Source: Gammaproteobacteria bacterium
GTDB lineage: Bacteria > Pseudomonadota > Gammaproteobacteria > Arenicellales > JAANXG01
Length of the DNA: 40,312 nucleotides
Reading direction: 5' to 3'
NCBI GenBank assembly: GCA_018263405.1
Contig: JAANXG010000076.1
Location: 1 to 40,312 of the forward strand
Of the stretch, positions 168-37,702 are shown piece after piece. Every line of letters starts with the position of its first letter. The first letter of the stretch is position 1. The position numbers and the translations under genes are program-made. Below the pieces are notes generated by a model that was not told the DNA's origin, searched no databases, and saw only the letters and a program-made list of their open reading frames with translations.

Positions 168-2558
168 TTATTCTGCAGCAGCAGCCTCCCGGCACTTTTG
201 GGCCTGGCATTCACGCAGGATCTGGGTTGCTCTGGCGGCCGGAGCCGGCTTGCCGACCAGATAGCCCTGAATCTCATGGCAATGCTGATCCCGCAGGAAA
301 TCGAGCTGACTTTCCGTCTCTACGCCCTCGGCAATGATCTTCAGGCCGAGACTCTTGCCCATGGCAATAATGGCTTGGACAATGGCGTCGTCGGTCGTAT
401 TGTGATCAACCTCGTTGACGAAGGACCGGTCTATCTTCAGGGTGTTGACCGAAAACCGCTTGAGATGCGACAGGGAAGAATAGCCCGTGCCGAAATCGTC
501 AATGGATATATTGACATCGAGATCCCTCAACTGACGAAGGATATTAACCGCAAGATCGGGATTCTGCATGATCACGGTCTCTGTTATCTCCAATTCAAGA
601 CTTTCCGGCGGCAGGTCGTAATCTTTGAGGGCCGCACTGATCTGGGCCACCAGATTCCGCTGCTGCAGTTGATAGCCTGAAAGGTTGATCGCGACGCGAG
701 CCGGTTCGAGCCCTTCATCAAGCCATTGGCGCATTTGTGAACAGACCTGGTGGAGCACCCACTCACCGATCGGGAAAATCAACCCGGTCTCTTCGGCAAG
801 AGAGATAAATTCTCCGGGCAGTAGCAGGCCGAGTTCCGGGTGCTCCCAGCGGATCATGGCCTCAAAGGATGTGACTCCGCCACTGCTGATATCAATTTTC
901 GGCTGATAAACAAGTCGAAACTCGTTTCTTTCCAGGGAGCGGCGAATACTGCTTTCGAGAAGCCTGCGCCGGTCGCTGTCGAGATCCATGGACGAACTGT
1001 AGGTTTTGCAATTATTGCGCCCCTGGGATTTGGCGTGGTACATGGCGATGTCCGCTTTTTTCACAAGTTCATCCGGGTTCGCATAGTGATCGGAAAAATG
1101 GCTGATACCAATACTGGCGGTAACAAATATTTCATGATCATTGATTGTCAGGGGTTCGGCCAGATAGTTGAGTATCTTGGAAGCGATCTGTTCGGCATCC
1201 GTTGACCGCTGCAGATTACCGAGGGTAATGGCAAATTCATCGCCACCCAGGCGGCCGATACCGTCGGTCTCGCGCAGAACGGTTTTCAATCGCTCCGCAA
1301 CCTTGACCAGCAGCTGATCTCCGACGGTATGCCCGAGCGTGTCATTGATGATCTTGAACCGGTCGAGATCGAGGAAAAGCACGGCTGCTTCCTTTTGCAG
1401 CCGCTTGGCTATGGCAAGAATCTGTTTGAGTTGGGCGACAAAATGAAGTCTGTTGGGCAGACCGGTCAGATTATCGTGATGGGCCATGTGGAAGAGTTGT
1501 TTCTGGGCCCGTTTGCGCTCGGTGACATTCCTGAAAATGCCCCAGGCAACCAGATCTTCGCCATCATCCTGATTGCAGGTGATGTTCCCCTCGACATTGA
1601 TGACACTGCCGTCGCGGGTCGTCATCTGTCCCTCGATCTCCCCGCTCTGCCGGCCTTCGAGAGCGCGTTGGAGGGCACGGGTATAGCGGCTGTTTTCCCC
1701 ATGGTAAATCATATCCATCATCGTGAGTCGATTCAGGTCGTCAAAGGTATAACCGAGGGTTTTACGCCAACTTTGGTTGACGTAGAGAAACCGGCCGTCA
1801 GGCTGAACACAGAAGATAAGGTCACTGGCACCGTCCAGGAACCTGATGAGGTGCTCCTCACTTTCCTGGAAAGCCTTGTTTTCCCGCCTGATAACGCGCA
1901 TTAGAAAAGCACTGATCAGGGCCATGGCCACATTGAGCACACTGACCCAGCACCACATCAGGCCGGCATAAAGACCGTCGCCATGGAGCGCCGGATTAAT
2001 AAAAGGCATGTCCACCGACGGCAGGAATTGGGCGAATTCTGCGTAGAGCAGGCCACCATAAAGCAATCCGCCCAGGCTGCCCATCGCTAAAATATGCCGG
2101 GGGTTATCAAGCAGCACGGCTGCCTCAATCGTGACGACTAGATAGACCGGCCAGAACCAACTGGCAGCACCCCCACTGTAATGTATCAGTACGGTGACCA
2201 GCGCCAGGTCGAGGCTAATCTGGAGATGGGCAACATAGCGGAACCGGGAGATTGCCTCGTAGAAGAAATGATAGAGAGTGTTGTAGACAAGAACCGCGCC
2301 AACGGCGATGGAAAGAATCGTGATCTGGGCATCGCTAACGAACAGACCATAGCGACTGCCCGCAAACGACACCACCGCAATCGCTCCGTAAAGACCAAAC
2401 AGAAAAAGCAAACACCAGCGAGCAGTGGTTACAAGGGCATTGCGGCCGCGCACGGAAGTAAAATTCCTGTTGATCTTTTCCGTGGCCTGTTCTGGTTGGG
2501 AACTCTGGGACAGGCTGCGGATCCAGTTGGGTGGATTAGGAATCTGCGGTTGGTTCAT
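168..2558 (-). CDS. Membrane-anchored PAS/GGDEF/EAL c-di-GMP signalling protein (diguanylate cyclase/phosphodiesterase)
   Basis: 796-aa ORF. The N-terminal ~200 aa are strongly hydrophobic (several TM segments), followed by a PAS-like segment. GGDEF motif 'RLGGDEFAI' has an RxxD I-site ('RETD') five residues upstream. EAL-domain signatures are 'EAMIRW', 'ELEITE', 'DDFGTGYSSL', 'KIDRSF', 'EGVET' and 'QGY'. Confidence 0.93.
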   Translation of the reverse strand: MNQPQIPNPPNWIRSLSQSSQPEQATEKINRNFTSVRGRNALVTTARWCLLFLFGLYGAIAVVSFAGSRYGLFVSDAQITILSIAVGAVLVYNTLYHFFYEAISRFRYVAHLQISLDLALVTVLIHYSGGAASWFWPVYLVVTIEAAVLLDNPRHILAMGSLGGLLYGGLLYAEFAQFLPSVDMPFINPALHGDGLYAGLMWCWVSVLNVAMALISAFLMRVIRRENKAFQESEEHLIRFLDGASDLIFCVQPDGRFLYVNQSWRKTLGYTFDDLNRLTMMDMIYHGENSRYTRALQRALEGRQSGEIEGQMTTRDGSVINVEGNITCNQDDGEDLVAWGIFRNVTERKRAQKQLFHMAHHDNLTGLPNRLHFVAQLKQILAIAKRLQKEAAVLFLDLDRFKIINDTLGHTVGDQLLVKVAERLKTVLRETDGIGRLGGDEFAITLGNLQRSTDAEQIASKILNYLAEPLTINDHEIFVTASIGISHFSDHYANPDELVKKADIAMYHAKSQGRNNCKTYSSSMDLDSDRRRLLESSIRRSLERNEFRLVYQPKIDISSGGVTSFEAMIRWEHPELGLLLPGEFISLAEETGLIFPIGEWVLHQVCSQMRQWLDEGLEPARVAINLSGYQLQQRNLVAQISAALKDYDLPPESLELEITETVIMQNPDLAVNILRQLRDLDVNISIDDFGTGYSSLSHLKRFSVNTLKIDRSFVNEVDHNTTDDAIVQAIIAMGKSLGLKIIAEGVETESQLDFLRDQHCHEIQGYLVGKPAPAARATQILRECQAQKCREAAAAE

Positions 2559-2848
2559 GGGCGCCTTTTGTTCACGGTAATCGTCTGGAAACTCTCCCTC
2601 AAGCTTCCTCCGGATCGGTATTATCCGGCAGCTATCAACCTTTCATAAAAGCAATGTGCACAAAATTTCGGCATTCCCTCGTCGACCCATTGCCTCACAC
2701 CACATCTTAGACTATATCCGGGATCAGCAGTGGGTGTATCGGAGGATATTGTGACGGAGGTCAATATTGCATGAGGCATCGACTGTATCCAGTCGGTGTA
2801 AAACGACACCGCATATGGGCGACGCGGATATCCTTGAGTGTATTCAAT

Positions 2849-3019
2849 GTAAGTTCTCAATAACCCCGTGCAAGAATGTGGGGGTAGGGTTGTCTTTCAG
2901 GGCTGTCGAAAGCACGGAGGCTTTCGCCAGAGCGTACAGGGAGGTATCTACAGCGTCCCTGAAAGACAACCCTACCCCCACATGATCGCCGACATTGCAC
3001 GGACTTTTTGAGAAATTAC
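2849..3019 (+). mobile_element. 171-bp MITE, copy A (GTAA termini, imperfect TIRs, 8-bp TSD TATTCAAT)
   Basis: The element runs GTAAGTTCTCAA...TTGAGAAATTAC. It is flanked by identical TATTCAAT at 2841-2848 and 3020-3027. Internally, a perfect 27-bp inverted repeat (2876-2902 / 2957-2983) encloses a 54-nt loop with a nested 7-bp hairpin (cgaaagc/gctttcg). The same 171 bp recur at 11416-11586 and 35625-35795. Confidence 0.85.
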
Positions 3020-3072
3020 TATTCAATCACGTATGATTACAGCACTCCATGCCTGGAAGAGAGGAGTAAGCG

Positions 3073-3630
3073 ATGAGACGATTATTTCCGGCCCTGGCGT
3101 TCGTCGCCGGGGTCTTGGCGATGGCGGCATGGCAGCCGGCGGTAGCCGGCGGGCCGCTGGCGGAGCGTCTGGACCGAGTGGTGAGCCGCATGGACAGTTC
3201 GGACATCCGGGCGGCCGACGTGCGGGCGGTGGTCAACCGCCTCCTGCCGTTGCAAAGCTTCCACGGCGGCGTATCCGAAGAAAAGATTCACGATCTCGCC
3301 CGCGAGGCGATGCAAGGCGTGATCGATACCCGCTTGAAGCTGGCTGATGCAAAGCGTCGAGGTGTCTAGGTGGACGAAGCCTCGATCGATGATGCCTTTG
3401 CCAAGGTCGTGGCGCGCTATCCAAACCCGGAAGAGTTCCAGGCCCGCCTGAGACGAGCCGGACTGACCGAAGGCAACCTTCGCGACACGCTGCGGCGCCG
3501 TCAACTCCTCAAGAACGTGGAGGCCGCCGTCGAAGACGAGTCGTACGAGCCGACTCTGGAGGACGCCAGACGTTTCTACGCCGCAAACCCCGACCGATTC
3601 CGCGAGCCTCGTCGCGCCGCCGAAAGAGGC
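3073..3630 (+). pseudogene. SurA-N/PpiD-like periplasmic chaperone gene remnant (in-frame TAG, 3' truncated)
   Basis: RBS gaggag lies upstream of ATG 3073, and the product starts with signal peptide MRRLFPALAFVAGVLAMAAWQPAVAG. An in-frame TAG at 3367-3369 interrupts '...LKLADAKRRGV*VDEASIDDAFAKVV...', a pattern typical of SurA N-terminal domains. The same frame continues to '...RFYAANPDRFREP', where a PPIase domain would normally follow. There the frame instead runs antisense into the hemY 3' end at 3631. Confidence 0.6.
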
Positions 3631-5205
3631 CTAACGGGCTCCGCTGTCCTTCAGGTACGCCACGATCTCGTCGGCCTGATCCCAGGCCTTCTCGATGCAC
3701 GCGTTCATAGCGACACCGTAGTACGAGCTCCCGGCGACCCACAGCCCGGGGTCCGCCGCCAGCCGCTGGTGGATCCGGTCCAGCCGGCTCTGGTGGCCCA
3801 CGTGGTACTGACCGATGCCCAAGGGCCAGCGGTAGACGCGGGTCAGCACCGGCTCTGCCGTGATCCCCATGGCGTCCTCAAGATCCGTCCGAGCCTGGCG
3901 GATAAGCACGTCCTCGCCCTCCGACACCGCTGCCGGGGCGTGGGCACCGCCGATCATGCACCGCACCAGCACCCTCCCCTTGGGCGCACGGCCCGGGAAG
4001 ATCGACGAGTCCCACAGACACCCGAGGATCCGGGGCCCCTCGCCCCGGGGCACCAGGAAACCAAAGCCGTCAGCATCGGGGACATCCGCCGCGTCCCACG
4101 CCAGCGCCACCACCGCGAGACCGGCGGTATCGATAGCGGTGATCGAATCGGCCAGCGCCGGGTCGAGATTTTGGAGCAGTGGTGCTGCTCGGGGCGAGGG
4201 GATGGTCACCACGACCCCGTCGGCGGTGAGCTCCTCGCCCGAGGCAAGGCGCACGGACCACCGACGGTTCCGGGCACCCGGCTCCTTCCCCCGCTGCCCT
4301 GAGCCGGCGGAGCGCGGAAACCTGCGGGAGGCGTCCACCCCGGCCGGCGCGGTGCGCCCCGCGTCCCCGCCATCCCCCGGTCGGTCCGTCTCTGTCCGCA
4401 CCACGGCGGCCACCGGACTACCAGTCCTCACCACGCCTTCTCCGAGGGCCGCCTCCAATCCCCGGACCAGCGTATCCAGGCCATTTTGGAAGGAGGTAAG
4501 GGTGCCGCCGGGCCCCGCCGGACCACCAGGCTGGGTCAGTTCCTCCACGTCCTCGCCGCGGGCCCGGCGCACCTCGACATCCCGCTTCGCGGCCTTCCGG
4601 GCCTTCATCCGAGCGAGCATGGCCTTCACCAGCCCGCCGTGCTCCGCTTCCATCGCCGCCATCTTGGGGAAACTGCTCTGAAGGCTCAACTCGTGGATGT
4701 TGCCAGCGCAAACACCGGAGACCACGGCATCCACCAGGACCGACGCGGCTTCGGGGCCGATGCGCCGGGCGGCGAACTCGTAGATGGTCTCCTCGATGTT
4801 GGGGCGGGAGCGAGCGAAGGGTTCCGCGAAGACCCGGAGCTTGCCGACCACGCTGAGGAGCCCGCTGGTCAGGAAGCTGACGGGCCCGGTGGGCGCTTCA
4901 TGGAGGCGACCGTTCCGGTAGATGAAGCGCTTCGCCGCAGCCTCGTCAGCGGGCTGAAGCTGGTCCTCCAGGCCGACGCGACGCACCAGCTCCAGCGTTC
5001 GGGGCGCGTTGTCCAGGAACCCGTTGGGTCCGTTCTCGATGGTGTAGTCACCGGCCCGCTCGGTGCGGATGTTCCCGCCGGGCTCGGTTTCGGCCTCCAG
5101 GACCACCACCTCCACCGGCGTATCGGCGGTCTTGGACTTACCCCGGATGTTCAAGGCGGTGGTGAGGCCCGTGACCCCGCCGCCGATGATAACGACACGC
5201 TGCAT
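3631..5205 (-). CDS. hemY: HemY-type FAD-dependent protoporphyrinogen oxidase
   Basis: N-terminal dinucleotide fold 'RVVIIGGGVTGL'. Also 'GFGFLVP' and the C-terminal 'RWPLGIGQYHVGH...YYGVAMNACI', recognisably like the Myxococcus/Bacillus HemY family. ATG 5205 gives the canonical N-terminus, but upstream in-frame starts at 5229 and 5265 are possible. GC is above 70%. Confidence 0.85.
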   Translation of the reverse strand: MQRVVIIGGGVTGLTTALNIRGKSKTADTPVEVVVLEAETEPGGNIRTERAGDYTIENGPNGFLDNAPRTLELVRRVGLEDQLQPADEAAAKRFIYRNGRLHEAPTGPVSFLTSGLLSVVGKLRVFAEPFARSRPNIEETIYEFAARRIGPEAASVLVDAVVSGVCAGNIHELSLQSSFPKMAAMEAEHGGLVKAMLARMKARKAAKRDVEVRRARGEDVEELTQPGGPAGPGGTLTSFQNGLDTLVRGLEAALGEGVVRTGSPVAAVVRTETDRPGDGGDAGRTAPAGVDASRRFPRSAGSGQRGKEPGARNRRWSVRLASGEELTADGVVVTIPSPRAAPLLQNLDPALADSITAIDTAGLAVVALAWDAADVPDADGFGFLVPRGEGPRILGCLWDSSIFPGRAPKGRVLVRCMIGGAHAPAAVSEGEDVLIRQARTDLEDAMGITAEPVLTRVYRWPLGIGQYHVGHQSRLDRIHQRLAADPGLWVAGSSYYGVAMNACIEKAWDQADEIVAYLKDSGAR

Positions 5206-10468: not shown

Positions 10469-11257
10469 ATGACCAGTGTCCTGACAAAAATAGATAAAGG
10501 TGTTGCGGTGGTCACGCTGAACAGGCCGGACGTTTTGAATGCCCTCAGTCCCGATATGGCCCGGACCCTGCATCATGTGCTGGTCGGGATATCGGAAGAT
10601 GAAAACGTTAGGTGTGTCGTACTCAAAGGCGCTGGTAACGGCTTTATGGCGGGCGGAGATGTAGGCTTTTTCAAGAGTGTGTTGCCGGATTTGGATGCCG
10701 GGAAGGTCGATGAGCTGGATCCGGTCTTCAAACACGTTCACGGCATTGTCGCAACGCTAAGGACCATGACGGTCCCCGTGATCGGTGTGCTGCACGGCGC
10801 CGTGGCCGGCTTCGGAGTCAGCCTCGCCGTGGCCTGCGATTTGGTCGTCGCCGCCGAAGAAACGCAGTTTACGCTTGCCTACTGCCATATCGGCACCAGC
10901 CCGGACGGCGCCAGTACGTATTTTCTCCCGCGTATCGTCGGCTTTAAAAAAGCCATGGAGCTTGCGTTGCTGGGCAACCGGTTCGATGCCCGGGAAGCCC
11001 TCGCGTTGGGTATATTGAATAAAGTGGTTCCGGCGACCGATCTCGAAGCGAGCGTGAACGAGTGGGTGCGGCGATTGCTGTCGGGGCCGAAGTTTGCCTA
11101 CGGTAAAACCAAAGCGCTGCTGTACAGCTCGCTCGATAATTCGTTCGATCGGCAGATCGAGCTCGAAGAGGAGTCGTTCAAACATTGCGCCCGGACGAGA
11201 GACTTCGCTGAAGGCGTGACAGCCTTCGTGGAAAAACGCAAAGCTGAATTTGGTTAA
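10469..11257 (+). CDS. Enoyl-CoA hydratase/isomerase (crotonase) family protein
   Basis: 262 aa. Crotonase-fold features 'VVTLNRPDVLNAL', oxyanion-hole region 'GAGNGFMAGGDV' and 'EGVTAFVEKRKAEF'. A ggag RBS precedes the ATG. Confidence 0.9.
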   Translation: MTSVLTKIDKGVAVVTLNRPDVLNALSPDMARTLHHVLVGISEDENVRCVVLKGAGNGFMAGGDVGFFKSVLPDLDAGKVDELDPVFKHVHGIVATLRTMTVPVIGVLHGAVAGFGVSLAVACDLVVAAEETQFTLAYCHIGTSPDGASTYFLPRIVGFKKAMELALLGNRFDAREALALGILNKVVPATDLEASVNEWVRRLLSGPKFAYGKTKALLYSSLDNSFDRQIELEEESFKHCARTRDFAEGVTAFVEKRKAEFG

Positions 11258-11415
11258 ACCTCCCGTGCCGGCCGGGCTGGGCCATTCACTGCGGATCGCG
11301 CCTTCCACTGGCGGCTCAGGCACGCTCTGAATGTTGCAATATCAGTGACGGGGTACACTAGCCCGGTTGTGTCAACTTGACAAATTGTTGCAATAAGCAC
11401 AGTGTTCACGCTAGC

Positions 11416-11586
11416 GTAAGTTCTCAATAACCCCGTGCAAGAATGTGGGGGTAGGGTTGTCTTTCAGGGCTGTCGAAAGCACGGAGGCTTTCGCCAGAGC
11501 GTACAGGGAGGTATCTACAGCGTCCCTGAAAGACAACCCTACCCCCACATGATCGCCGACATTGCACGGACTTTTTGAGAAATTAC
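11416..11586 (+). mobile_element. 171-bp MITE, copy B (8-bp TSD ACGCTAGC)
   Basis: By eye, identical base for base to copy A. Flanked by ACGCTAGC at 11408-11415 and 11587-11594. Confidence 0.85.
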
Positions 11587-11860
11587 ACGCTAGCTTTGTT
11601 AGACTCGGGGTTTCCTAAGAAATAAGAAACGTAAGTTACATAAGTTACAATTAAGCGGAAACAGCGTCCCTGGAATGACTGCCCAAACATTGATATTGAA
11701 TCCGGGAAGGGCTCGGGTATTTTGCGTTGCAATATGCCTGTACCGCAAATACTCAACGCTCATCCGGAGTAATCCGACTCATCTTGCACTGCGGCGGTCT
11801 GCTTGTGTGTTGAAGCAGGCCGGCGGCGTCTACCACCAAACCGCATAAACGGGGGGGCCG

Positions 11861-13756
11861 ATGAATAAGCCGTTGCATCCCGATCCCAATTCAAACCAAA
11901 AACCTCGACGGCTGAACTATCTGGTCGGTGCTTCGCTGGTTGTGACCTCGTTTGCCTTCCAGGTGCCGGTTTCGGCGGTCCAGTTCGAATCGGGTGAATT
12001 TTTTGGCAGTATCGACAACACGATCTCTTATGGAACTACCTGGCGTGTACAAAGCCGTGACCGGGATCTCCTCGGGCTGACCTCCACGACTCTGCCCAAC
12101 GGTACTGTTCCACCCGGCGGACCCGGGGGCCGGGCTTTCTCGGTCAACGGGGATGATGGCAACCTGAACTACGATAAAGGCCTGGTGAGCAACGTCGTGA
12201 AAATCACCAGCGAGCTTTCTCTCGAGCATAATTCAGGATACGGCGCATTTGTTCGGGGCAGTGCTTTTTACGATTTCGAGAACGAAGACGGCGACCGGGA
12301 AAAGATCGACCTATCGGACGAGGCGTTGGAACTGGTCGGCAGCGATATCGAGTTGCTGGATGCCTACGTGTTTAGCGGCTTCGAGGTAGGCGACGTGCCG
12401 GTGGACCTTAGGCTCGGCAACCAAGTGGTTAGTTGGGGGGAAAGCACGTTCATTCAAAACGGCATTAATGTGCTCAATCCGATCGATGTGTCTGCCATTC
12501 GCGTACCCGGGGCGGAGCTGCGCGAGGCATTGCTGCCGGTAAACATGCTCTGGGGCAGCGCCGGGGTGACCTTAAACAGTTCGGTGGAGGGGTTTTACCA
12601 GTTTGAGTGGGATGAAACCGAGCCCGATCCGTCCGGTTCCTATTTCAGCACCAACGATTTCGCCACCGACGGCGGCAACAAACTGATGCTCGGTTTCGGT
12701 TCGGTGCCGGATATCATACCGTTCGGCCCGGCGGCCGCTGCCTCGATCGGTGCCTCGCCGACGGGGGTCGCGGTACCTCGCGGCGCCGATCGCGAGGCGG
12801 ACGACAGCGGTCAATTCGGCCTCGCATATCGCGTCTATGTGCCTGAATTCGGCGACACGGAACTGGGGTTCTATTACATGAATTACCACAGCCGCCTACC
12901 GATCATCAGTGCTAAGACCGGTACCCTGGCGGGTTTGGCAGGCGGTGACTATGTCGGCTCGGCGCGGTATTTCACGGAGTTCCCCGAAGATATTCAACTT
13001 CTTGGCCTCAGCTTTAATACACAGGTCGGTACCACCGGCTGGGCTCTGCAGGGTGAATTGTCTTATAAAAAGGACGTCCCGCTACAGGTCGACGACACTG
13101 AGTTGTTGTTCGCGGCGCTCTCGCCACTGGCGATTCCCGAAGCCGCGGCCGGCACTCCGGGGGTAGGGACATTATTGGCAAGTACGAATCAGGTCGCACC
13201 GGGTGGCGTGGGTTTTGCTACGGAAATACCCGGCTTCGCAGAGCGCGACGTGGTCCAGGTCCAGGTCACCGGTACTCGTGTCTATGCCAATGTATTTGGC
13301 GCGGATCAGCTGGCGGTGGTCGGTGAGATCGGAATCACCCATGTGAACGCCATGCCCGACCAGAACGAACTGCGCCTCGAGGCGCCCGGCACTTTTACGT
13401 CGGGTAACCCGGTGCATACCCTGGCGGGGGTGCAACCAGCCACCGAAGACGCCGATAATTTTGCTGATGCGAGCAGCGCCGGTTATCAGATACGTGGCCG
13501 GCTCACCTACAACAATGCGATCGGACCGATCGCGCTGATTCCGACTTTTGCTTTCCGGCACGATTTCTCGGGCAATTCGCCGGGGCCGGGAGGAAACTTT
13601 CTGGAGGGGCGCAAAGCGGTTACTCTGGGCGTCGCGGCGAACCTGCGTAACGAGTGGACGGCTGAAGTCGGTTATACCAACTTCTTCGGCGCCGGACGCC
13701 ATAACCTGATTAACGATCGCGACTTTATCTCTTTCAACATCAAGTATTCCCGATAG
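11861..13756 (+). CDS. DUF1302-family outer-membrane protein
   Basis: 631 aa. N-terminal signal-like segment, with Gly/Asn/Asp/aromatic-rich alternating composition and a C-terminal '...FISFNIKYSR', typical of outer-membrane beta-barrels. The sequence pattern and its pairing with the next gene match the DUF1302/DUF1329 gene pair known from Pseudomonas and marine gammaproteobacteria. Confidence 0.75.
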   Translation: MNKPLHPDPNSNQKPRRLNYLVGASLVVTSFAFQVPVSAVQFESGEFFGSIDNTISYGTTWRVQSRDRDLLGLTSTTLPNGTVPPGGPGGRAFSVNGDDGNLNYDKGLVSNVVKITSELSLEHNSGYGAFVRGSAFYDFENEDGDREKIDLSDEALELVGSDIELLDAYVFSGFEVGDVPVDLRLGNQVVSWGESTFIQNGINVLNPIDVSAIRVPGAELREALLPVNMLWGSAGVTLNSSVEGFYQFEWDETEPDPSGSYFSTNDFATDGGNKLMLGFGSVPDIIPFGPAAAASIGASPTGVAVPRGADREADDSGQFGLAYRVYVPEFGDTELGFYYMNYHSRLPIISAKTGTLAGLAGGDYVGSARYFTEFPEDIQLLGLSFNTQVGTTGWALQGELSYKKDVPLQVDDTELLFAALSPLAIPEAAAGTPGVGTLLASTNQVAPGGVGFATEIPGFAERDVVQVQVTGTRVYANVFGADQLAVVGEIGITHVNAMPDQNELRLEAPGTFTSGNPVHTLAGVQPATEDADNFADASSAGYQIRGRLTYNNAIGPIALIPTFAFRHDFSGNSPGPGGNFLEGRKAVTLGVAANLRNEWTAEVGYTNFFGAGRHNLINDRDFISFNIKYSR

Positions 13757-15150: not shown

Positions 15151-15249
15151 GAGACTTCTCGAAAAGTTCGTGCAATGTTAGCGATGATGCGGGGGTAGGG
15201 TTGTCTTTCGAGAAAGACAACCCTACCCCCGCACTCTTGCACGGGGTTA
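15151..15249 (-). mobile_element. Internally deleted, end-eroded derivative of the MITE (near-perfect 22-bp-stem palindrome)
   Basis: Carries the MITE arm sequence ...TTCTCGAAAAGTTCGTGCAATGTTAGCGATGATGCGGGGGTAGGGTTGTCTTTC and its complement joined almost directly (palindrome 15188-15233). The central 54-nt loop and one 12-bp terminus are missing. It lies in the 147-bp spacer between the DUF1329 and propeller genes. Confidence 0.75.
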
Positions 15250-15290
15250 CCGGGTTGCAGGCTCCGGGCGATCCGGTCCCGGTATGTACC

Positions 15291-16323: not shown

Positions 16324-18669
16324 ATGGCGGACGCCGAACGCAGCCGGTTCATAGCGTGTGTGGAATCGGCGATTTTCGATCGCCGGGGGCTGGTGATCGG
16401 CGTTTTTGCGACCGTCACCATAGCCATGGTGTGGTTCGCGGCCCAGCTACGCATCGACGCCGGCTTTACCAAGTATTTACCGAAGGACCACCCGTACATG
16501 GAAACTTTTTTACAATACAGGGACGAATTCGGCGGGGCGAACCGTGTATTGATCGCCGTCAGGACGAAGGAAGGCGATATTTTTACTCCCGAGTTTTTCA
16601 ACACGCTGAAAGAAGCCACGGACGAAGTGTTTTTTCTGCCGGGCGTCAACCGCGGCAGCGTCAAATCGCTGTTCACGCCCAACGTGCGCTTCACCGAGGT
16701 GGTGGTCGGTGGAATATCCGGGGGCAACGTGGTACCCGCGGACTTCGAGCCCACGGAACAAGGACTGCAGGAGGTCAGGCAAAATATCCTGAAGGCGGGC
16801 ATCGTGGGCCGCCTGGTGGCCAACGATTTCAGCGGGGCGATGATCGGTGCCGAGTTGCTGGAGTTCGATCCCAACACCGGCGAGCCGCTGGACTACGTGG
16901 AGGTGGCCCACCGGCTGGAGAAAAAAATCCGCGACCGGTTCTCCACCCATAACGGCAAGGAATACGACATTCATATCATCGGTTTCGCCAAGATGGTCGG
17001 CGATATCACCGATGGAGCCGGGCGCGTCGTGCTCTTCTTTTTCATCGCCTTTGTCATCACCGCGATACTGATAATCGCCTACACCAGTTCCTGGCGGGTC
17101 ATGGGATTGATACTGGGTTGTTCTCTTCTTGCCGTCGTGTGGCAATTGGGGCTGCTGCCGATCCTGGGCTTCGGGTTGGACCCGATGTCCATTTTGGTTC
17201 CGTTCCTGGTGTTTGCCATTGCCGTCAGCCATGCCATGCAGATGGTGAGTGCGGCCCGTGCCGAGATTTTTCTCGGCTCGGATTTCAATCAGGCCGCCCG
17301 CAAGGCGTTCAGGCGCGTGTTGCTTCCCGGTACCGTGGCGCTGGCCAGCGACACCATCGGTTTCATCGCGAGTATGCTTACCTTCAACGCCCTCGCCGGG
17401 CTAATGGCCATCACCGCCAGCCTGGGGGTGGCCGTGGTTATTCTGACCAATCTCGTCCTGCTGCCGGTCTTGTTGACTTATTTGACGTTCGCGCGGGAAT
17501 ACCGGGTGCGGCTGGAACAACGGGCGCGGGCGTTCGGCAGATTTTGGGAGATTCTTTCCAGAACGGCCACCAAACGCGGGTCCGTGCTGGTATTGGCCTG
17601 CGGGACCGGCCTGCTGGCGGTGGGTTTGTGGCGCGGAGCGGACGTTGCGATCGGTGACCTCCACCCCGGCGTACCCGAGCTGAGGCCGGATTCGCGGTAC
17701 AACCAGGACACTATTGCCATCACGGAGAACTTCTCTATTGGGGTCGATGTGATGTCGGTGTTCGCGGAAACAATCCCCCAGGGATGCATCGACTATCAGG
17801 CGATGAGGGCCATCGACGATTTCGGCTGGTGGATGAGCAACGTCGAGGGCGTGCAGTCCACTCTGTCGTTGCCCAAAGTCGCCAAGGGTGTTAATGCGGG
17901 GTGGAACGAGGGCAGTCTCAAGTGGCATGTATTACCTAGAAACCAGGCGGCCCTGGTGCAGGCGACCAGCCCCGTCGATACCAGTTCCGGCCTTCTCAAC
18001 GGCGACTGCAGTGTAATGCCTGTCATGCTGTTCACCACCGATCACAAGGCCTCGACCATTGACCGCATCGTGCGGAAGGTCAAGGATTACGAGGGGCAAT
18101 ATGGCTCCGAATCGGCGCATTTTCGACTCGCCGGAAGTATCGTGGGCGTCTGGGCGGCGACCAACGAAGCCGTTGAGGCGGCGCAGTTTCCCATTTTGTT
18201 TTATGTATTCTCTGCAATTATCATTCTGTCCCTGGTGTCGTTTCGCAGCGTCGCCGGTACCTTGTGCATCGTGTTGCCCTTGGGGTTGGTTTCATTGCTG
18301 GCTTATGCCCTGATGAATACGCTGGAAATCGGGTTGAAGGTGAATACTTTGCCCGTGGTCGCCTTGGGCGTGGGGATCGGGGTGGATTACGGCATCTATA
18401 TATTCAGCCGTTTCCAGAGCCTCCTAAAAGAGGGCTATTCCATCGCCGAGGGCTATTGCACCACTTTGGCGATAACCGGATTCGGAGTGATTTTTACCGG
18501 CTGTACCCTTGCCATTGGGGTAGCGACCTGGATCTTCTCGCCGCTCCAGTTTCAGGCCGACATGGGAATTTTGCTTACATTTATGTTTATTATGAATATG
18601 TTAGGTGCTATTTTACTGCTGCCCGCGTTGGCAGTCTGGCTGCTGGTAGACTCCCAGCATCAGTCCTGA
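16324..18669 (+). CDS. RND-superfamily (MMPL/HpnN-like) membrane transporter
   Basis: ~780 aa with two blocks of ~6 hydrophobic helices, each preceded by a large soluble loop (RND topology). ATG 16324 lies 1 nt after the upstream TAA, suggesting translational coupling. Confidence 0.85.
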   Translation: MADAERSRFIACVESAIFDRRGLVIGVFATVTIAMVWFAAQLRIDAGFTKYLPKDHPYMETFLQYRDEFGGANRVLIAVRTKEGDIFTPEFFNTLKEATDEVFFLPGVNRGSVKSLFTPNVRFTEVVVGGISGGNVVPADFEPTEQGLQEVRQNILKAGIVGRLVANDFSGAMIGAELLEFDPNTGEPLDYVEVAHRLEKKIRDRFSTHNGKEYDIHIIGFAKMVGDITDGAGRVVLFFFIAFVITAILIIAYTSSWRVMGLILGCSLLAVVWQLGLLPILGFGLDPMSILVPFLVFAIAVSHAMQMVSAARAEIFLGSDFNQAARKAFRRVLLPGTVALASDTIGFIASMLTFNALAGLMAITASLGVAVVILTNLVLLPVLLTYLTFAREYRVRLEQRARAFGRFWEILSRTATKRGSVLVLACGTGLLAVGLWRGADVAIGDLHPGVPELRPDSRYNQDTIAITENFSIGVDVMSVFAETIPQGCIDYQAMRAIDDFGWWMSNVEGVQSTLSLPKVAKGVNAGWNEGSLKWHVLPRNQAALVQATSPVDTSSGLLNGDCSVMPVMLFTTDHKASTIDRIVRKVKDYEGQYGSESAHFRLAGSIVGVWAATNEAVEAAQFPILFYVFSAIIILSLVSFRSVAGTLCIVLPLGLVSLLAYALMNTLEIGLKVNTLPVVALGVGIGVDYGIYIFSRFQSLLKEGYSIAEGYCTTLAITGFGVIFTGCTLAIGVATWIFSPLQFQADMGILLTFMFIMNMLGAILLLPALAVWLLVDSQHQS

Positions 18670-18706
18670 ATCCATATCATATACTGTATCGTTTGGCGAA
18701 AATCCG

Positions 18707-19342
18707 ATGAGTAATAATGTGACTAATAAAATAGCCAAATTCACCCGCGAGAATCGCGATACCAAACTCACGTTTTTTCAGGGGTTTTTAAGGCGCCCCC
18801 AAACCGTGGGTTCGGTGATCCCCAGTTCGAAGTTTCTTGTGCGCCGGATTTTGAAGCTTGCGGACATCAGGGAAAATGACACCGTGGTGGAGCTGGGTCC
18901 GGGCACGGGTGGTACGACGCATGCGTTGTTGAACAAATTGGGTCCGACCGGGAGACTTCTCGGTATCGAAGTAGAGTGGAAATTCGTCGAACTGCTGCAA
19001 CAGATCGACGACGCCCGTTTGATCCCGCATCACGGCAGTGCGGAGGACATATCGAATATTCTAAAAGACCATGGACTGGGCAAGCCGGATGTCGTGATAT
19101 CGGGTATCCCGTTTTCAACGATGCCGGCTGAAGCCGGCCAGAAAATCGTGCGTGCAATTTTCAGCGTTCTGCCGCCCGGCAAGAGTTTCGTTGCCTACCA
19201 ACTCCGGGATCGTGTTGCCGAATTAGCTGCACCCGTTTTCGGAAAACCCGAAGTATCTCTTGAGTTGATCAATATTCCGCCCATGCGGGTTTATAAATGG
19301 TCCGTTAAAGACAAACCGGATTTGGTGCGCGAAACGGCCTGA
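18707..19342 (+). CDS. Class I SAM-dependent methyltransferase (phospholipid N-methyltransferase-like, COG3963-like)
   Basis: Motif I 'VVELGPGTGGTT', preceded by 'FLRRPQTVGSVIPSS', which is characteristic of this small MTase family. 211 aa. Confidence 0.7.
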   Translation: MSNNVTNKIAKFTRENRDTKLTFFQGFLRRPQTVGSVIPSSKFLVRRILKLADIRENDTVVELGPGTGGTTHALLNKLGPTGRLLGIEVEWKFVELLQQIDDARLIPHHGSAEDISNILKDHGLGKPDVVISGIPFSTMPAEAGQKIVRAIFSVLPPGKSFVAYQLRDRVAELAAPVFGKPEVSLELINIPPMRVYKWSVKDKPDLVRETA

Positions 19343-19445
19343 CCGAATTTTACCGTAGCTGATCATGTCGGTGTGTCACCGTCACCGTCTGTTTTCTTCG
19401 CGGCATCCACAGCAGAAAAAGTCTAACGCCTCGATCCTGCAATAG

Positions 19446-20081
19446 TCAGTATTTAGCCGCCACCTTTAAGACGTGGCGATCCCCCGAGAGTTCGCGGAAG
19501 TGATCCGCATGTTCAAGCAGAATATGCGCGGTAGATTCCCTGAAATTAGTGACTTCGACCTTGCAGCCACGGCTTTTCAAATACCAGATCAGCGGCAGGT
19601 AGTCCTTGTCCCCGGCGAGCAGAACAATGGCGTCTACTTTCTCCGCCAGGGTGATAGCGTCGATGATTAGATACGGGTCTACGGATTTTTCCGGCTGTCT
19701 GACCTCGCCGCCCAATTCTTCCGTCCACATCTTTTCAAATTTGTAGTTGATCGGACGCGACTGTTTTTTGTAGTAAATCATGCGTACGATGCGGCGGTAA
19801 TTCGCCACGTCTGAAACTATTGATCGCCATTCGGGATAGTACATGTACTTCACTTCCGAGTTGTATGTGGTGAACATATTTTCAACGGTGATTTCCAGGG
19901 TCTCGCTGTCGATAAGTACGGCGATCCGTTGATCGCTGCGTATGCGTTTTCGAGCGAGTTCATGCTCGTTCCCTTGCGGTTGATTATCTGAGTCTATGGC
20001 GGTGTTGACCGACCGAGAGCGGCTTTCTCCGGGTAGGATGGAGTTGCCGTTAGCGCTGTTGTGATGATTATTTTCGTACAT
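19446..20081 (-). CDS. NYN/LabA-like (PIN-fold nuclease) domain protein with low-complexity N-terminus
   Basis: 'RIAVLIDSETL', 'VDPYLIIDAITLA' and 'LLAGDKDYLPLIWYLKSRGCKVEV' match the NYN/LabA acidic-residue pattern. ATG 20081 is preferred because the ORF-track start at 20294 would overlap the divergent SDR gene. Local GC is ~40-45%. Confidence 0.7.
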   Translation of the reverse strand: MYENNHHNSANGNSILPGESRSRSVNTAIDSDNQPQGNEHELARKRIRSDQRIAVLIDSETLEITVENMFTTYNSEVKYMYYPEWRSIVSDVANYRRIVRMIYYKKQSRPINYKFEKMWTEELGGEVRQPEKSVDPYLIIDAITLAEKVDAIVLLAGDKDYLPLIWYLKSRGCKVEVTNFRESTAHILLEHADHFRELSGDRHVLKVAAKY

Positions 20082-20229
20082 GTTGGGTTGTGCCTTGTTT
20101 GTTTCTATATCGCTTTTATCGTTAATTCTGTCGAACTGCGGCCAAAAATAACCGACTTTTCTTTCGACATGTACAAGTGTCCCTTTTATATTATAGGGAC
20201 GAAACTGAAGAAGGAAGTATTCTGTATTT

Positions 20230-21048
20230 ATGCGAAATTCGATCGATTTTTCCAACAAAGTCGTGTTCGTGGCCGGAGGTACCAGCGGTATCAACCTGGG
20301 TGTGGCGGAGGGGTTTGCCCGTGCCGGCGCCAGATTGGCGGTGCTCAGTCGCAGTCAGGATAAAGTGGATGCCGCGGTTGAGAAACTGTCGGCATACGGC
20401 GAGTCCGCCATGGGAGTCGCGGCCGACGTGCGTGACTACGAGGCCGTGGAAGATGCGTTCCGGAAGGCCCGGACCGAGGCAGGACCGGTGGATGTGCTTG
20501 TTTCCGGAGCAGCCGGAAATTTTCCGGCCAGGGCGCTTGATATGTCTTCCAATGGTTTTCGGGCCGTCGTCGATATTGACCTCGTGGGCACTTACCACGT
20601 GATGCGTGCGGGCTATGATGTGCTGCGTAAACCTGGGGCCTGCGTCATTAACATATCGGCGCCACAGGCCTTTGTACCGGCTCCCCTTCAGTCGCATGTC
20701 TGCGCCGCCAAAGCGGGCGTGGATATGTTGACCCGCGTCCTGGCGTTGGAATGGGGCGGGGCGGGAGTGCAGGTCAATTCAATCGTCCCGGGCCCGATCA
20801 GGGATACGGAAGGCATGGCCCGCCTTGCGCCCACCGAATCCATGCAGCAGGCCGTGGCGAACAGCGTGCCACTGAAACGCATGGGTGAAAAGGAGGATGT
20901 GGCGAGTTTTGCGCTCGCGTTGGCATCGCCTTTAGGGGCGTATGTCAGCGGCGCGGTGATCCCGGTGGACGGCGGGTGGTCGCTGACGGGATTTGGCGAG
21001 ATGATGAGCCAGTTGGCGGATATGATTCAGCAATCCAAAACCGGCTGA
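20230..21048 (+). CDS. SDR-family oxidoreductase (2,4-dienoyl-CoA reductase/DECR-like)
   Basis: Rossmann motif 'VAGGTSGINLG'. 'NISA...HVCAAKAG' occupies the position of the catalytic YxxxK, as in DECR-like SDRs. RBS gaaggaag precedes the ATG. Confidence 0.85.
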   Translation: MRNSIDFSNKVVFVAGGTSGINLGVAEGFARAGARLAVLSRSQDKVDAAVEKLSAYGESAMGVAADVRDYEAVEDAFRKARTEAGPVDVLVSGAAGNFPARALDMSSNGFRAVVDIDLVGTYHVMRAGYDVLRKPGACVINISAPQAFVPAPLQSHVCAAKAGVDMLTRVLALEWGGAGVQVNSIVPGPIRDTEGMARLAPTESMQQAVANSVPLKRMGEKEDVASFALALASPLGAYVSGAVIPVDGGWSLTGFGEMMSQLADMIQQSKTG

Positions 21049-34130: not shown

Positions 34131-34362
34131 ACGGTGCCTCCTGGAATTCAGTTCACAATAAATCGTGGATGATCAGCCTGCTTTGAAGGGGTAGTAGCTC
34201 GTTGGAGTATAGTGTACCCCGTCACTGAGCCTGGGTTTTATATTCGGGGCAAAAAACCAGCATGATTTCGGATGGTATCCTCTCTTTGAGGACCATGGCG
34301 GTAAGGTGATCTGGAAAGGCCTACAAAATACCGGATACAAAACAAGGTTTTTAGGTAAGCGT

Positions 34363-34420
34363 GTAAGTTCAAAAAGTCCGTACAATGTTAGCGATGGTGT
34401 GGAGGCAGGGTTGTCTTTCG
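34363..34420 (-). mobile_element. Half copy (one arm) of the MITE
   Basis: GTAAGTTCAAAAAGTCCGTACAATGTTAGCGATGGTGTGGAGGCAGGGTTGTCTTTCG matches one arm of the element, of the subtype seen at 15151-15249. No partner arm follows. Confidence 0.6.
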
Positions 34421-34497
34421 GCCTATCTCGTGGTCCAAGTAGACAGATGGCCTTATCATCCCACGACAAAGTTGTGATATGCGAGGGTTAACTACGT

Positions 34498-35296: not shown

Positions 35297-35578
35297 GTGT
35301 TAGTTACCAAGGAAATGGGAATATCCCATGCGGAGTTCTTTTCAGTGCTGCCGCGTTTACTGGATGGACGCGAATACAAAGTCGAAGGCAGTATAATCGT
35401 TTGCGAAAACGACGGCAGGCGGATCATCTTCACGCTCTGGCCCGAACAACAGCGAACCATCGCTTCGATCACGCTACCGAGTACCCGGATCGATATATCG
35501 CTGGATGACTTCAGTGACGAGGAACAGAAGAGATTCATGGAAAAATTTGACCTGCGTTTTCGACGCGGTGGCGGTTGA
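35297..35578 (+). CDS. Small hypothetical protein ending in ...RFRRGGG
   Basis: 93-aa ORF (GTG 35297; alternative ATG 35315) in the same orientation between moeB and moaA. I recognised no family. No convincing RBS, so coding status is moderate. Confidence 0.5.
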   Translation: MLVTKEMGISHAEFFSVLPRLLDGREYKVEGSIIVCENDGRRIIFTLWPEQQRTIASITLPSTRIDISLDDFSDEEQKRFMEKFDLRFRRGGG

Positions 35579-35624
35579 GAATCTCTCTGTGACGCCTCTG
35601 CGGGGCCCTGTATCCTAATTTATC

Positions 35625-35795
35625 GTAATTTCTCAATAACCCCGTGCAAGAATGTGGGGGTAGGGTTGTCTTTCAGGGCTGTCGAAAGCACGGAAGCTTT
35701 CGCCAGAGCGTACAAGGATGTATTCACAGCGTCCCTGAAAGACAACCCTACCCCCACATGATCGCCGACATTGCACGGACTTTTTGAGAAATTAC
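35625..35795 (+). mobile_element. 171-bp MITE, copy C (8-bp TSD AATTTATC)
   Basis: Flanked by AATTTATC at 35617-35624 and 35796-35803. It differs from copies A/B at 6 positions, 5 of them within the 54-nt central loop. Both termini read GTAATTTCTCAA. Confidence 0.85.
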
Positions 35796-35798
35796 AAT
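35771..35798 (+). promoter_or_regulatory. Possible outward-facing hybrid sigma70 promoter formed by the MITE end and its target site
   Basis: TTGCAC (35771-35776), a 16-nt spacer, then TACAAT (35793-35798), which spans the element/TSD junction. This lies ~49 nt upstream of the moaA ATG. Pattern match only. Confidence 0.25.
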
Positions 35799-35846
35799 TT
35801 ATCACGTTGATAGAGTAACTAAAACTGAACCCTGAATAGTCGTTCG

Positions 35847-36869
35847 ATGAGGCAAATGACCGTACAAGACGCACTGCAAAGGCCGATCCGGGATCTGAGA
35901 ATTTCCGTTACCGACCGGTGCAACTTTCGGTGCGTTTATTGCATGCCGAAACACGTGTTCGGACCCGGCCACGAGTTTTTGCCGCGTTCGGAGTTGCTGA
36001 CCTACGAGGAAATTGCGCGCCTGGCCCGCTCATTTGCCGCGATAGGGGTCGGTAAATTCCGTCTGACGGGCGGTGAGCCATTGATTCGCCGCGATCTCGT
36101 TGGCCTCATCGGGATGCTCAGCGGTATCGAAGGCGTCGAGGACATCAGCCTCACGACGAATGGTTCGATGTTAACGCCGGACAAGGCCCGGACGCTCAAG
36201 CAGGCCGGCTTGCGGCGCATCACGGTATCCTTGGATGCATTGGACAACCAGACCTTTATGATGCTTAACGACGTCGACTACCCGGTTCAAAAAGTCCTGG
36301 ATGCCCTTGACAATGCCGAGGCGGCCGGACTTTCCCCGGTGAAGGTCAACGTTGTTGTCAAAAAAGGCGTGAACGACCACAGTATTATTCCTCTGGTACG
36401 ATATTTTCATGGCTCGTCGCACATCGTGCGATTCATCGAATATATGGACGTGGGACACAGTAACGGCTGGCGCCTGGATGATGTCGTGCCCGCGGCCGAA
36501 ATCGCAGAGCGTATCAACGCCGAGTTGCCGATTGAGCCCGCCGAACCCAATTATCGCGGTGAAGTCGCTCAACGCTGGCGGTTCGTGGACGGCGGTGGGG
36601 AAGTAGGTATCGTATCCTCGGTCACCCAACCGTTTTGCCGCAGTTGTCATCGCGCCCGTTTGTCGGCAAGAGGGGAGTTGTACACCTGCCTGTTTGCCGC
36701 CCGGGGACATGACCTGCGCCGTCTGGTGCGCGATACGGAACTATCGGATGATGAACTAACGGACCGCCTTTCCCGAATTTGGTCCGTGCGCGATGATCGT
36801 TACTCGGAAATCCGCAGTGAAAACACGCTGTCACTGCCGAAAGTGGAGATGTCCTACATCGGTGGCTGA
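35847..36869 (+). CDS. moaA: GTP 3',8-cyclase (radical SAM, Moco biosynthesis)
   Basis: 'LRISVTDRCNFRCVYCMP' (CxxxCxxC), 'RLTGGEPL', 'ISLTTNG', and C-terminal cluster cysteines 'CRSCHRARLSARGELYTCLF'. Confidence 0.95.
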   Translation: MRQMTVQDALQRPIRDLRISVTDRCNFRCVYCMPKHVFGPGHEFLPRSELLTYEEIARLARSFAAIGVGKFRLTGGEPLIRRDLVGLIGMLSGIEGVEDISLTTNGSMLTPDKARTLKQAGLRRITVSLDALDNQTFMMLNDVDYPVQKVLDALDNAEAAGLSPVKVNVVVKKGVNDHSIIPLVRYFHGSSHIVRFIEYMDVGHSNGWRLDDVVPAAEIAERINAELPIEPAEPNYRGEVAQRWRFVDGGGEVGIVSSVTQPFCRSCHRARLSARGELYTCLFAARGHDLRRLVRDTELSDDELTDRLSRIWSVRDDRYSEIRSENTLSLPKVEMSYIGG

Positions 36870-36982
36870 GTACTCCATCAATGGGATCAAATCCGCTCCG
36901 TCTTCCTTGCGGGCACCTCTATTCATTATTGATACCTATCGACCAAGAACACGGGACCTTAACAAGCGCAAGAGAGTATCCA

Positions 36983-37702
36983 GTGAGCACACCATTCAAA
37001 GCCAGGAATTACGAACCGCTGATTTCACTCATCGTGCCGGTTTTCAATGAACAAGATGTCGTTGAAATCTTCCTGGAGAAAACCTCCCGAGTCATGGAAA
37101 AAGCCAGACTTGATTATGAGTATGTTTTCATAAATGACGGGTCGACTGACGGGACATTGGCAAAACTGATTGAACTGTCAGCCAGTAATCCACACATCCG
37201 GGTCATCAACCTGTCCCGCAACTTCGGTAAAGAAGCGGGGATGACCGCGGGAATTGACCGGGTACGGGGCAATGTCCTGGTGCCGATTGATGTCGATTTG
37301 CAGGACCCGCCTGAACTGATTCCACAGTTTGTCGAAAAATGGCGGGAAGGCTACGACATAGTCTATGGAGTACGTACACATCGTAACGAGGATTCCATGA
37401 TAAGAAGGGCCACCGCTGGGTGGTTTTACGGCTTGTTCAACCACCTGTCCCCTGTGCATATTCCAGACAATGCCGGGGACTTCCGTTTGATTGATGAACG
37501 TGCCAACGAAGTGTTACGACAACTCCCTGAACGCAACCGCTTTATGAAAGGCCTGTTTTCCTGGGTAGGGTTCTATTCGATCGGTATCTCTTATTTGAGT
37601 ATTAAGCATGTCTTAATGTCCAGATACCATATCAGGTGGGAAGTTGCCGGGTTAGCGCAACCGCCAGGAAAACATGAAAGAACTTTTAAGAAATTTTGTT
37701 AA
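36983..37702 (+). pseudogene. GT2 glycosyltransferase (GtrB/bactoprenol glucosyltransferase-like), 3' truncated
   Basis: GTG 36983 follows agagag. 'ISLIVPVFNEQD', 'INDGSTDGT', 'NFGKEAGMTAGI', 'DVDLQDPPELI' and 'RFMKGLFSWVGF' are typical GT2/GtrB motifs. After about 37575 the frame loses homology. It ends without the ~90-aa C-terminal part, including two TM helices, expected in this family. Confidence 0.7.

Follow-up and report, generated by a model that had tools for sequence, protein, structure and literature searches.

A 171-bp miniature element of a gammaproteobacterial contig shares its ends with divergent, ISBst12-like IS66-family elements

Why does the same 171-bp sequence recur between the genes of one bacterial contig, and which enzyme would have placed it there? 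The contig, hereafter the window, is the whole 40,312-nucleotide stretch JAANXG010000076.1 of the gammaproteobacterial assembly GCA_018263405.1 (Arenicellales). A first-pass annotation of its letters had read the repeat as a miniature transposable element with inverted repeats (MITE) with an IS66-type mobiliser, and had pictured the partner as a tnpA/tnpB/tnpC element with matching ends. The MITE call stands, given that the repeat lacks coding capacity, is bounded by inverted ends and recurs in several copies, each with a perfect 8-bp duplication of its own. Very probably it consists of two terminal inverted repeats (TIRs) of ~25 bp that are recognised by a divergent, ISBst12-like DDE transposase of the IS66 family, and the sequence that separates them is structured, non-coding filler. 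The IS66-type attribution, which had come from GTAA ends and 8-bp duplications only, is borne out by autonomous elements that have the same ends and a PF03050 transposase, but the three-gene partner is not: these elements carry one open reading frame (ORF), or a DUF4338 ORF plus the transposase.

Reading of the three sites confirmed each full copy together with the target-site duplication (TSD) that brackets it, as well as the internal stem and, by folding, the hairpin nested in its loop. The features are as follows:

2849-3019, plus strand: MITE copy 1, 171 bp; TSD TATTCAAT at 2841-2848 and 3020-3027
2849-2873, plus strand: left TIR of copy 1, GTAAGTTCTCAATAACCCCGTGCAA, presumed transposase-binding end
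2995-3019, minus strand: right TIR of copy 1, GTAATTTCTCAAAAAGTCCGTGCAA read inward
2876-2902 and 2957-2983, plus strand: arms of the internal perfect 27-bp stem of copy 1, with 54 nt between them
2907-2913 and 2920-2926: nested 7-bp hairpin in the loop of copy 1
11416-11586, plus strand: MITE copy 2, 171 bp; TSD ACGCTAGC at 11408-11415 and 11587-11594
35625-35795, plus strand: MITE copy 3, 171 bp; TSD AATTTATC at 35617-35624 and 35796-35803

The three full copies share one orientation, and their TSDs are perfect 8-bp repeats in 3/3 cases, no two of which have the same sequence; by chance, a single site would show an 8/8 match with a probability of ~1.5e-5. Copies 1 and 2 are identical at 171/171 positions, while copy 3 departs from copy 1 at base 5 of the left end and at five bases of the loop, 6 positions in all, and this near-identity indicates recent movement. 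The inverted termini proved imperfect, as had been described, and ~25 bp long: the left end, GTAAKTTCTCAATAACCCCGTGCAA, and the reverse complement of the right end, GTAATTTCTCAAAAAGTCCGTGCAA, agree at 21/25 positions. With up to 3 mismatches allowed, the window contains three occurrences of the 26-nt left terminus, against 0 in 100 dinucleotide-preserving shuffles. ORFs lying wholly within the element reach at most 47 amino acids (aa), and the 60-84-aa ORFs of the earlier ORF list extend into the flanks, consistent with the absence of coding capacity noted in the first-pass annotation; the two 47-aa ORFs inside the element matched no exact protein on record.

The same terminus bounds short elements in many other genomes. 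A scan of one genome per species with the pattern GTAAKTTCTCAANNNNNCCGTGCAA returned at least 27 loci, with bin labels among the matches listed of Gammaproteobacteria, Chromatiales, Desulfobulbaceae or Deltaproteobacteria, Thermodesulfobacteriota and, in two cases, 'Bathyarchaeota'; the first 27 loci compared have no ORF in common, indicating that none of them holds an insertion sequence (IS). A metagenome scan for the terminus GTAAnTTCTCAATAAnnCCGTGCA added 64 further loci, and GTAAnTTCTCAATAAnnCCGTGCA bounds many short elements of 63-230 bp in other sediment-type genomes and metagenomes. The terminus has the consensus GTAA(C/T/G)TTCTCAA, and its first 24-25 bases are near-invariant save at positions 5, 16 and 17, after which similarity is lost abruptly and the interiors are mostly unrelated. 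This conservation is partly enforced by the search pattern, which itself required the GTAA found at positions 1-4 in 167-169 of the 170 collected termini. Among the paired short elements of 75-221 bp for which both flanks could be read, a perfect 8-bp duplication was present in 16/20 and a 7/8 match in one more, such that the duplication length seen in the window also holds elsewhere; since 5/16 of the duplicated elements have flanks in common, they represent at least 12 independent events. BLAST of PLSDB plasmids yielded no meaningful match to the 171-bp element or to a 30-nt terminus, viral contigs scanned for the terminus gave 0 matches, and a full-text search of the open literature with terminus sequences found no relevant paper.

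Two candidates met in these scans were rejected. Deltaproteobacterial elements that had seemed one-ended carry a diverged terminus, GTATCTGCTCAC, at the other side and have 8-bp duplications (one perfect, two 7/8), and a 2.3-kb interval between two termini in locus L017, considered as a possible IS, consists of two separate short elements flanking mnmG. We also observed, in the long-read metagenome-assembled genome (MAG) MFD03804.bin.1.238, a MITE nested in another short repeat, with ~40 bp of conserved left flank, ~26 bp of conserved right flank and the same AAATCTTA duplication throughout. This composite was later amplified to at least five sites (L001 5134-5292; L018 6482-6637; L019 4783-4938; L025 6790-6945; L006 4629-4713).

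Longer elements with these ends were found among the metagenome loci, in which inward-facing pairs of termini lie 2.58-2.86 kb apart (n=12) or 1.8-1.9 kb apart (n=2). Either two ORFs fill a 2.6-kb element or a single transposase ORF is present, leaving no room for tnpA or tnpB. ORF1 (~298 aa) matches Pfam PF14236 (DruA / DUF4338) with E = 1.6e-43, and ORF2 (~525-560 aa) matches PF03050 DDE_Tnp_IS66 at 82.4 and 77.9 bits, the cut-off being 23.1. Against the NCBI IS66 equivalog NF033517, ORF2 gave E = 7e-43, but its 147 bits fall under the 180-bit cut-off, indicating a divergent branch of the IS66 family. The two ORFs are syntenic wherever context exists, and the ORF1 stop overlaps the transposase start by 4 bp. 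Two-ORF elements include:

L048, 2559-5137: two-ORF partner element
L041, 417-3027: two-ORF partner element
L092, 5033-7693: two-ORF partner element
L093-L100: two-ORF partner elements

Further copies of the elements with transposases P0100 and P0106 have the gene content of the other long elements, and across these copies and the 14 long elements the IS66 type was the only transposase family seen between such ends. The terminal sequence is ...CCGTGCAA upstream of ORF1 and ...CCGTGCAT/G at the opposite end, an asymmetry that many short elements preserve. The left end in the window differs from the left inverted repeat (IRL) of the 2.6-kb elements L041, L042, L048 and L053 only at the variable position 5 (25/26 for L041), and the truncated single-ORF element of L044 has an end identical to it at 25/25 positions. 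Relatives of the transposase form more than 6000 clusters (E <= 1e-20), mostly from sediment-type metagenomes, and those of ORF1 number more than 7800 at E <= 1e-10; nearly all of either lie on 1-3-kb contigs, which is how collapsed repeats are expected to assemble.

Whether the autonomous elements also make 8-bp duplications can be read on finished plasmids. Relatives on three of them are single-ORF elements with GTAACTTCTCA ends, perfect 8-bp duplications and 48-51% amino-acid identity; the PGAP label of these cultured relatives is 'transposase' only:

Caballeronia sp. SBC2 pSBC2-3 (NZ_CP049319.1, 402530-404556): 2027 bp, ends GTAACTTCTCAATAAC.CGGGGC, duplication CATCAGCT
Allochromatium tepidum pAt1 (NZ_AP024564.1, 37315-39055): 1741 bp, ends GTAACTTCTCAATAA.TCA, duplication CGATTTTT
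Serratia marcescens p11663 (NZ_AP014611.1, 51350-53113): 1764 bp, ends GTAACTTCTCATTAAGTTGTGGC (23/23), duplication AACAAAAC

A more distant relative from Rhizobium johnstonii, 36% identical, has the ends GTAA/GTAC together with a repeat of 8-9 bp. On the short metagenome contigs a duplication in cis was seen only in L089 (CAATTTTT, perfect). Among copies with the identical transposase P0106, however, the flank GCAAAAAG left of L094 equals that right of L096, and the flank TAAGTCTG left of L098 equals that right of L093, L094 and L099. These matches across contigs indicate that the contig flanks are chimeric and that 8-bp duplications were made at the insertions. Two independent samples also contain a junction of the right inverted repeat (IRR) with an IRL, …GAGAAGTTAC GTTTCGGT GTAACTTCTC…, in which GTTTCGGT separates the two ends (L096 49-106; L102 2499-2556). 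Such an IRR-GTTTCGGT-IRL junction could come from a tandem dimer or, with the 8 bp as spacer, from a circular intermediate of copy-out transposition.

Which named family do these partners approach most closely? The ISBst12 group comprises elements of ~1.35-1.9 kb with GTAA ends and 8-9-bp duplications, and the elements in L083, L061, Allochromatium (1741 bp) and Serratia (1764 bp) have this layout, the Caballeronia element being slightly longer (2027 bp). The group has been described as IS66-family elements with a single ORF, and its member ISDge4 from Deinococcus geothermalis, for which transposition was observed experimentally, has the ends GTAACTGCTCAGCA / GTGACTACTCAGCA, the duplication CCTCGATG and a 449-aa transposase (PMC12898284). 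The partners likewise have GTAA-type ends (GTAACTGCTCAGCA in ISDge4 versus GTAACTTCTCAATA here, with a GTAAC-T-CTCA start in common), an 8-bp duplication and one IS66-type DDE transposase of ~450-560 aa with no tnpA/tnpB, and their single-gene forms measure 1.7-2.0 kb. Most environmental partners depart from the group in being 2.6 kb long with the additional DUF4338 ORF, while the window element itself differs as a 171-bp non-coding derivative and is no IS. With Deinococcus and Bacillus IS66-family proteins the partner transposase aligns by BLAST over the C-terminal catalytic region only (31% identity over ~150 residues and 39% over ~85, respectively). Judged by its published description, ISDge4 is the closest named element to the partner.

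The least improbable alternative is that the MITE is mobilised by a canonical three-gene IS66 (tnpA, tnpB, tnpC) or by another family that makes 8-bp duplications (e.g. IS1595, ISL3, IS6 or IS256), the ISBst12-like match being incidental. It draws some force from the fact that the hallmarks at family level are limited to GTAA and the 8-bp duplication, and from the lack of a partner transposase in the window. We nevertheless regard it as very unlikely, because 14/14 long elements with such ends, together with the P0100/P0106 copies, carry an IS66-type DDE transposase with or without the DUF4338 ORF, and because these elements hold neither room for tnpA/tnpB nor any other transposase family. Canonical IS66 elements (IS66, IS679, ISRm14, ISPa75-type) have in common with the partner the GTAA start, the 8-bp duplications and the PF03050 domain, but differ from it by their tnpA/tnpB genes and by their ends, which are 20-30 bp long, start with GTAAGCG and are bordered by 8-bp direct repeats (PMC11946415; PMC12888890), and the partner scores under the equivalog cut-off. 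Taken together, the comparisons support as the putative partner a divergent, ISBst12-like and often DUF4338-bearing IS66-family branch rather than canonical IS66, and it is probably this transposase clade, rather than another protein, that mobilises the window copies.

The accessory ORF1 belongs to the partner and not to the window, and so does the comparison with Druantia that it invites. ORF1 has its Pfam family (PF14236 / DUF4338) in common with Druantia DruA, but it scores only 29 bits with the PADLOC DruA1 model, is not accompanied by the other Druantia genes (DruB-E) and has the transposase as its sole neighbour between the inverted repeats. It does not belong to a Druantia system. In an AlphaFold model of moderate confidence (mean predicted local distance difference test score 68), its N-terminal helical domain is confident, and the modelled C-terminal alpha/beta domain resembles GNAT acetyltransferases of the PDB (Foldseek E ~5e-6, target TM-score ~0.5), in agreement with the published reading of DUF4338 as GNAT-like (PMC10853773). 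No solved structure was matched by sequence of either ORF1 or the transposase, and in the open literature no paper linking DUF4338 with IS66 was found. It is conceivable, though we put it forward only tentatively, that the partner represents an undescribed, very abundant IS66 branch whose transposase gene is translationally coupled to a GNAT-like DUF4338 protein. DUF4338 proteins were also seen apart from IS66-type transposases, in L105 (Candidatus Thiodictyon syntrophicum pTs485) and in hit H33 (pTs417); one of these cases stands alone beside an integrase and an IS91 transposase, and one is a tblastn match under a gene annotated as an ISAs1-family transposase.

We then consider the interior, whose stability raises a second alternative, namely that the repeat is mainly a functional structured element (a small RNA, a transcription attenuator/terminator or a protein-binding palindrome of the REP/BIME kind) that the host retains for regulation, its mobility being secondary or lost. 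The whole unit folds at -56.5 kcal/mol as DNA (z = -13) and at -93.5 kcal/mol as RNA (z = -11) when compared with shuffles, and such a stable fold speaks for a function. So do the homologues of the window lineage, in L008 (a Chromatiales bin, also 171 bp), L007 and L013 (MAG098), L012 (CSMAG_317) and L086: they are ~75% identical to the window element and alike in architecture, and the long stem and the 7-bp hairpin are maintained in them, in other gammaproteobacterial genomes, through compensatory changes. Those changes, however, separate essentially two lineages and may reflect homogenisation of a palindrome rather than selection. Copy placement could likewise be read as regulatory, since all five window copies, full and decayed, are intergenic, the three full ones point alike relative to the downstream gene and the right end contains a -35-like TTGAGA. 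Yet the window gave no match to Rfam at gathering thresholds and a permissive scan of the element gave sub-threshold chance matches only, and the T-run geometry of a terminator is absent. Above all, copy-specific 8-bp duplications around identical copies denote recent transposition, which REP-type elements do not produce. We therefore consider a primarily regulatory element very improbable. Given that the hairpins are conserved within the lineage, the interior of the MITE may help to bring the ends together, or it may be tolerated as a stable palindrome.

Some smaller observations concern the same interior and right end. L012 (1-222) and L086 (363-583) carry an additional insertion of ~50 bp in the loop, indicating that the interior tolerates a change in length while stem and ends persist. 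At 3008-3037 of the window, the TTGAGA in the right end of copy 1 is followed 18 nt on by TATGAT, ~35 bp upstream of the ORF at 3073. An outward hybrid promoter made of this right-end TTGAGA and the flanking TATGAT was rejected, because it occurs at copy 1 only, with no comparable -10 element after the TTGAGA of copies 2 and 3, and because its count is not above that of shuffles. The window contains no tRNAs.

The idea that the three duplications arose by coincidence or through faulty assembly, and that the repeat is immobile, has next to no probability: although the window is a metagenome-assembled contig in which repeats can mis-assemble, 3/3 perfect 8/8 matches abut the ends exactly, and at least 12 independent elements from other assemblies follow the same rule, as do those on three finished plasmids.

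We thus return to a MITE moved by an ISBst12-like transposase. In this scheme the transposase would come from a full-length element located elsewhere, in the same genome or in the community, and a source copy presumably exists in this genome. The enzyme would bind both 24-25-bp ends of the 171-bp element in trans and move it, inserting it at staggered cuts 8 bp apart, the repair of which would yield the 8-bp duplication. Several observations weigh against this scheme. No transposase of any kind is encoded within the 40-kb window; the first-pass annotation had stated this for an IS66-type transposase. The interior of the 171-bp element resembles that of none of the full-length elements sampled, indicating that the MITE is not a simple deletion derivative of those elements. 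Most metagenomic full-length copies have no duplication in cis; chimeric flanks account for many of them, not necessarily for all. The element at 5033-7693 of L092, on a 316-kb contig, has intact ends and no target duplication (flanks ...ACAATAAAT / CGTTAATAC...), for which recombination between copies is one possibility. Finally, no empty site was seen, the nearest available genomes being only ~77% identical in DNA with intergenic regions that are not alignable. Relatives were reached through MoaA orthologues, the nearest of which are 82-83% identical and come from Arenicellales bins; the synteny of aldehyde dehydrogenase, moeB and moaA is conserved in these relatives at a DNA identity of 74-82%. 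L107, a contig assembled from short reads of the same organism, has its start within copy 3 (window position 35770), and dispersed repeats are a usual cause of such breaks.

Two further copies, both inverted relative to the full ones, are decayed. Both had been recognised before and both are real, although the first ends at 15250 and not at 15249:

15151-15250, minus strand: decayed short variant, ~100 bp, between a DUF1329 gene and a BNR-repeat gene
34363-34420, minus strand: half copy, 58 bp, with one end (GTAAGTT-CAAAAAGTCCGTACAATG) and one stem arm, between the aldehyde dehydrogenase gene and moeB

In the short variant both stem arms survive around a loop that has shrunk to 2 nt; one end (GTAA-CCCCGTGCAAG) lacks 11 bp, the other has GAGAC in place of GTAAT at its mutated tip, and no target duplication is recognisable around the variant. 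The two decayed copies have diagnostic bases in common, indicating an older subtype. In the relatives L108 and L110 a DUF1244 gene lies between the aldehyde dehydrogenase gene and moeB, whereas the corresponding part of the window (34131-34497) lacks it and has the half MITE instead; a deletion adjacent to the half MITE may have removed the gene. The density of one copy per 8 kb describes this 40-kb contig and is not extrapolable to the genome.

The genes next to the full copies are as follows:

168-2558, minus strand: diguanylate-cyclase-type gene, left of copy 1
From 3073: ORF for a small secreted protein, right of copy 1
10469-11257: enoyl-CoA hydratase gene, left of copy 2
11861-13756: DUF1302 gene, right of copy 2
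35297-35578: small ORF, left of copy 3
35847-36869: moaA, right of copy 3

Three other places in the window were noted. At 3073-3640, an ORF with a signal-peptide-like start (3073-3369) is followed by an in-frame continuation from 3370, and it seems that a stop codon splits one gene there, as a pseudogene or through an assembly error. The stretch 18000-20300 has the lowest GC content of the contig (0.51 versus ~0.57 overall) and contains a gene for an NYN-domain protein (19446-20294, minus strand). A glycosyltransferase family 2 gene at 36881-37702 lies between moaA and a MoCF-biosynthesis gene and is not found at that position in L108 and L110.

For the organism, the five repeats of the contig are not to be annotated as genes or RNAs, and they account for breaks of its short-read assembly at such points. 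Like Correia elements, RUP and MITEAba12, the window element is short, non-coding and hairpin-forming, with inverted ends, target duplications, several copies and a transposase that would act in trans; those elements, by contrast, have other ends, duplications of another length (TA in Correia and RUP) and another transposase family. What sets the window family apart from other bacterial MITEs is a terminus that is near-invariant across Gammaproteobacteria and Desulfobacterota bins although the interiors are unrelated. The 171-bp MITE is of an ordinary kind, with a partner that had not been pinned down before, and the DUF4338-bearing partner clade is the more novel part. The 24-25-bp end signature GTAAnTTCTCAATAAnnCCGTGCA identifies MITEs and IS66-type partners in Gammaproteobacteria and Desulfobacterota from sediment-type samples. 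Transposition in the IS66 family is still poorly understood, and this clade offers a practical system, with abundant natural mini-substrates, finished plasmids in cultivable hosts and an unusual accessory gene. If the DUF4338 protein is a required transposition factor or a regulator, it would replace TnpA and TnpB in the partner branch, and would hint at a transposon-related origin or function of the DruA domain. The near-invariant terminus, present in distant bacterial lineages and joined to unrelated interiors, would then be the mark of one mobilisation system in wide use, from which many MITE lineages arise independently.

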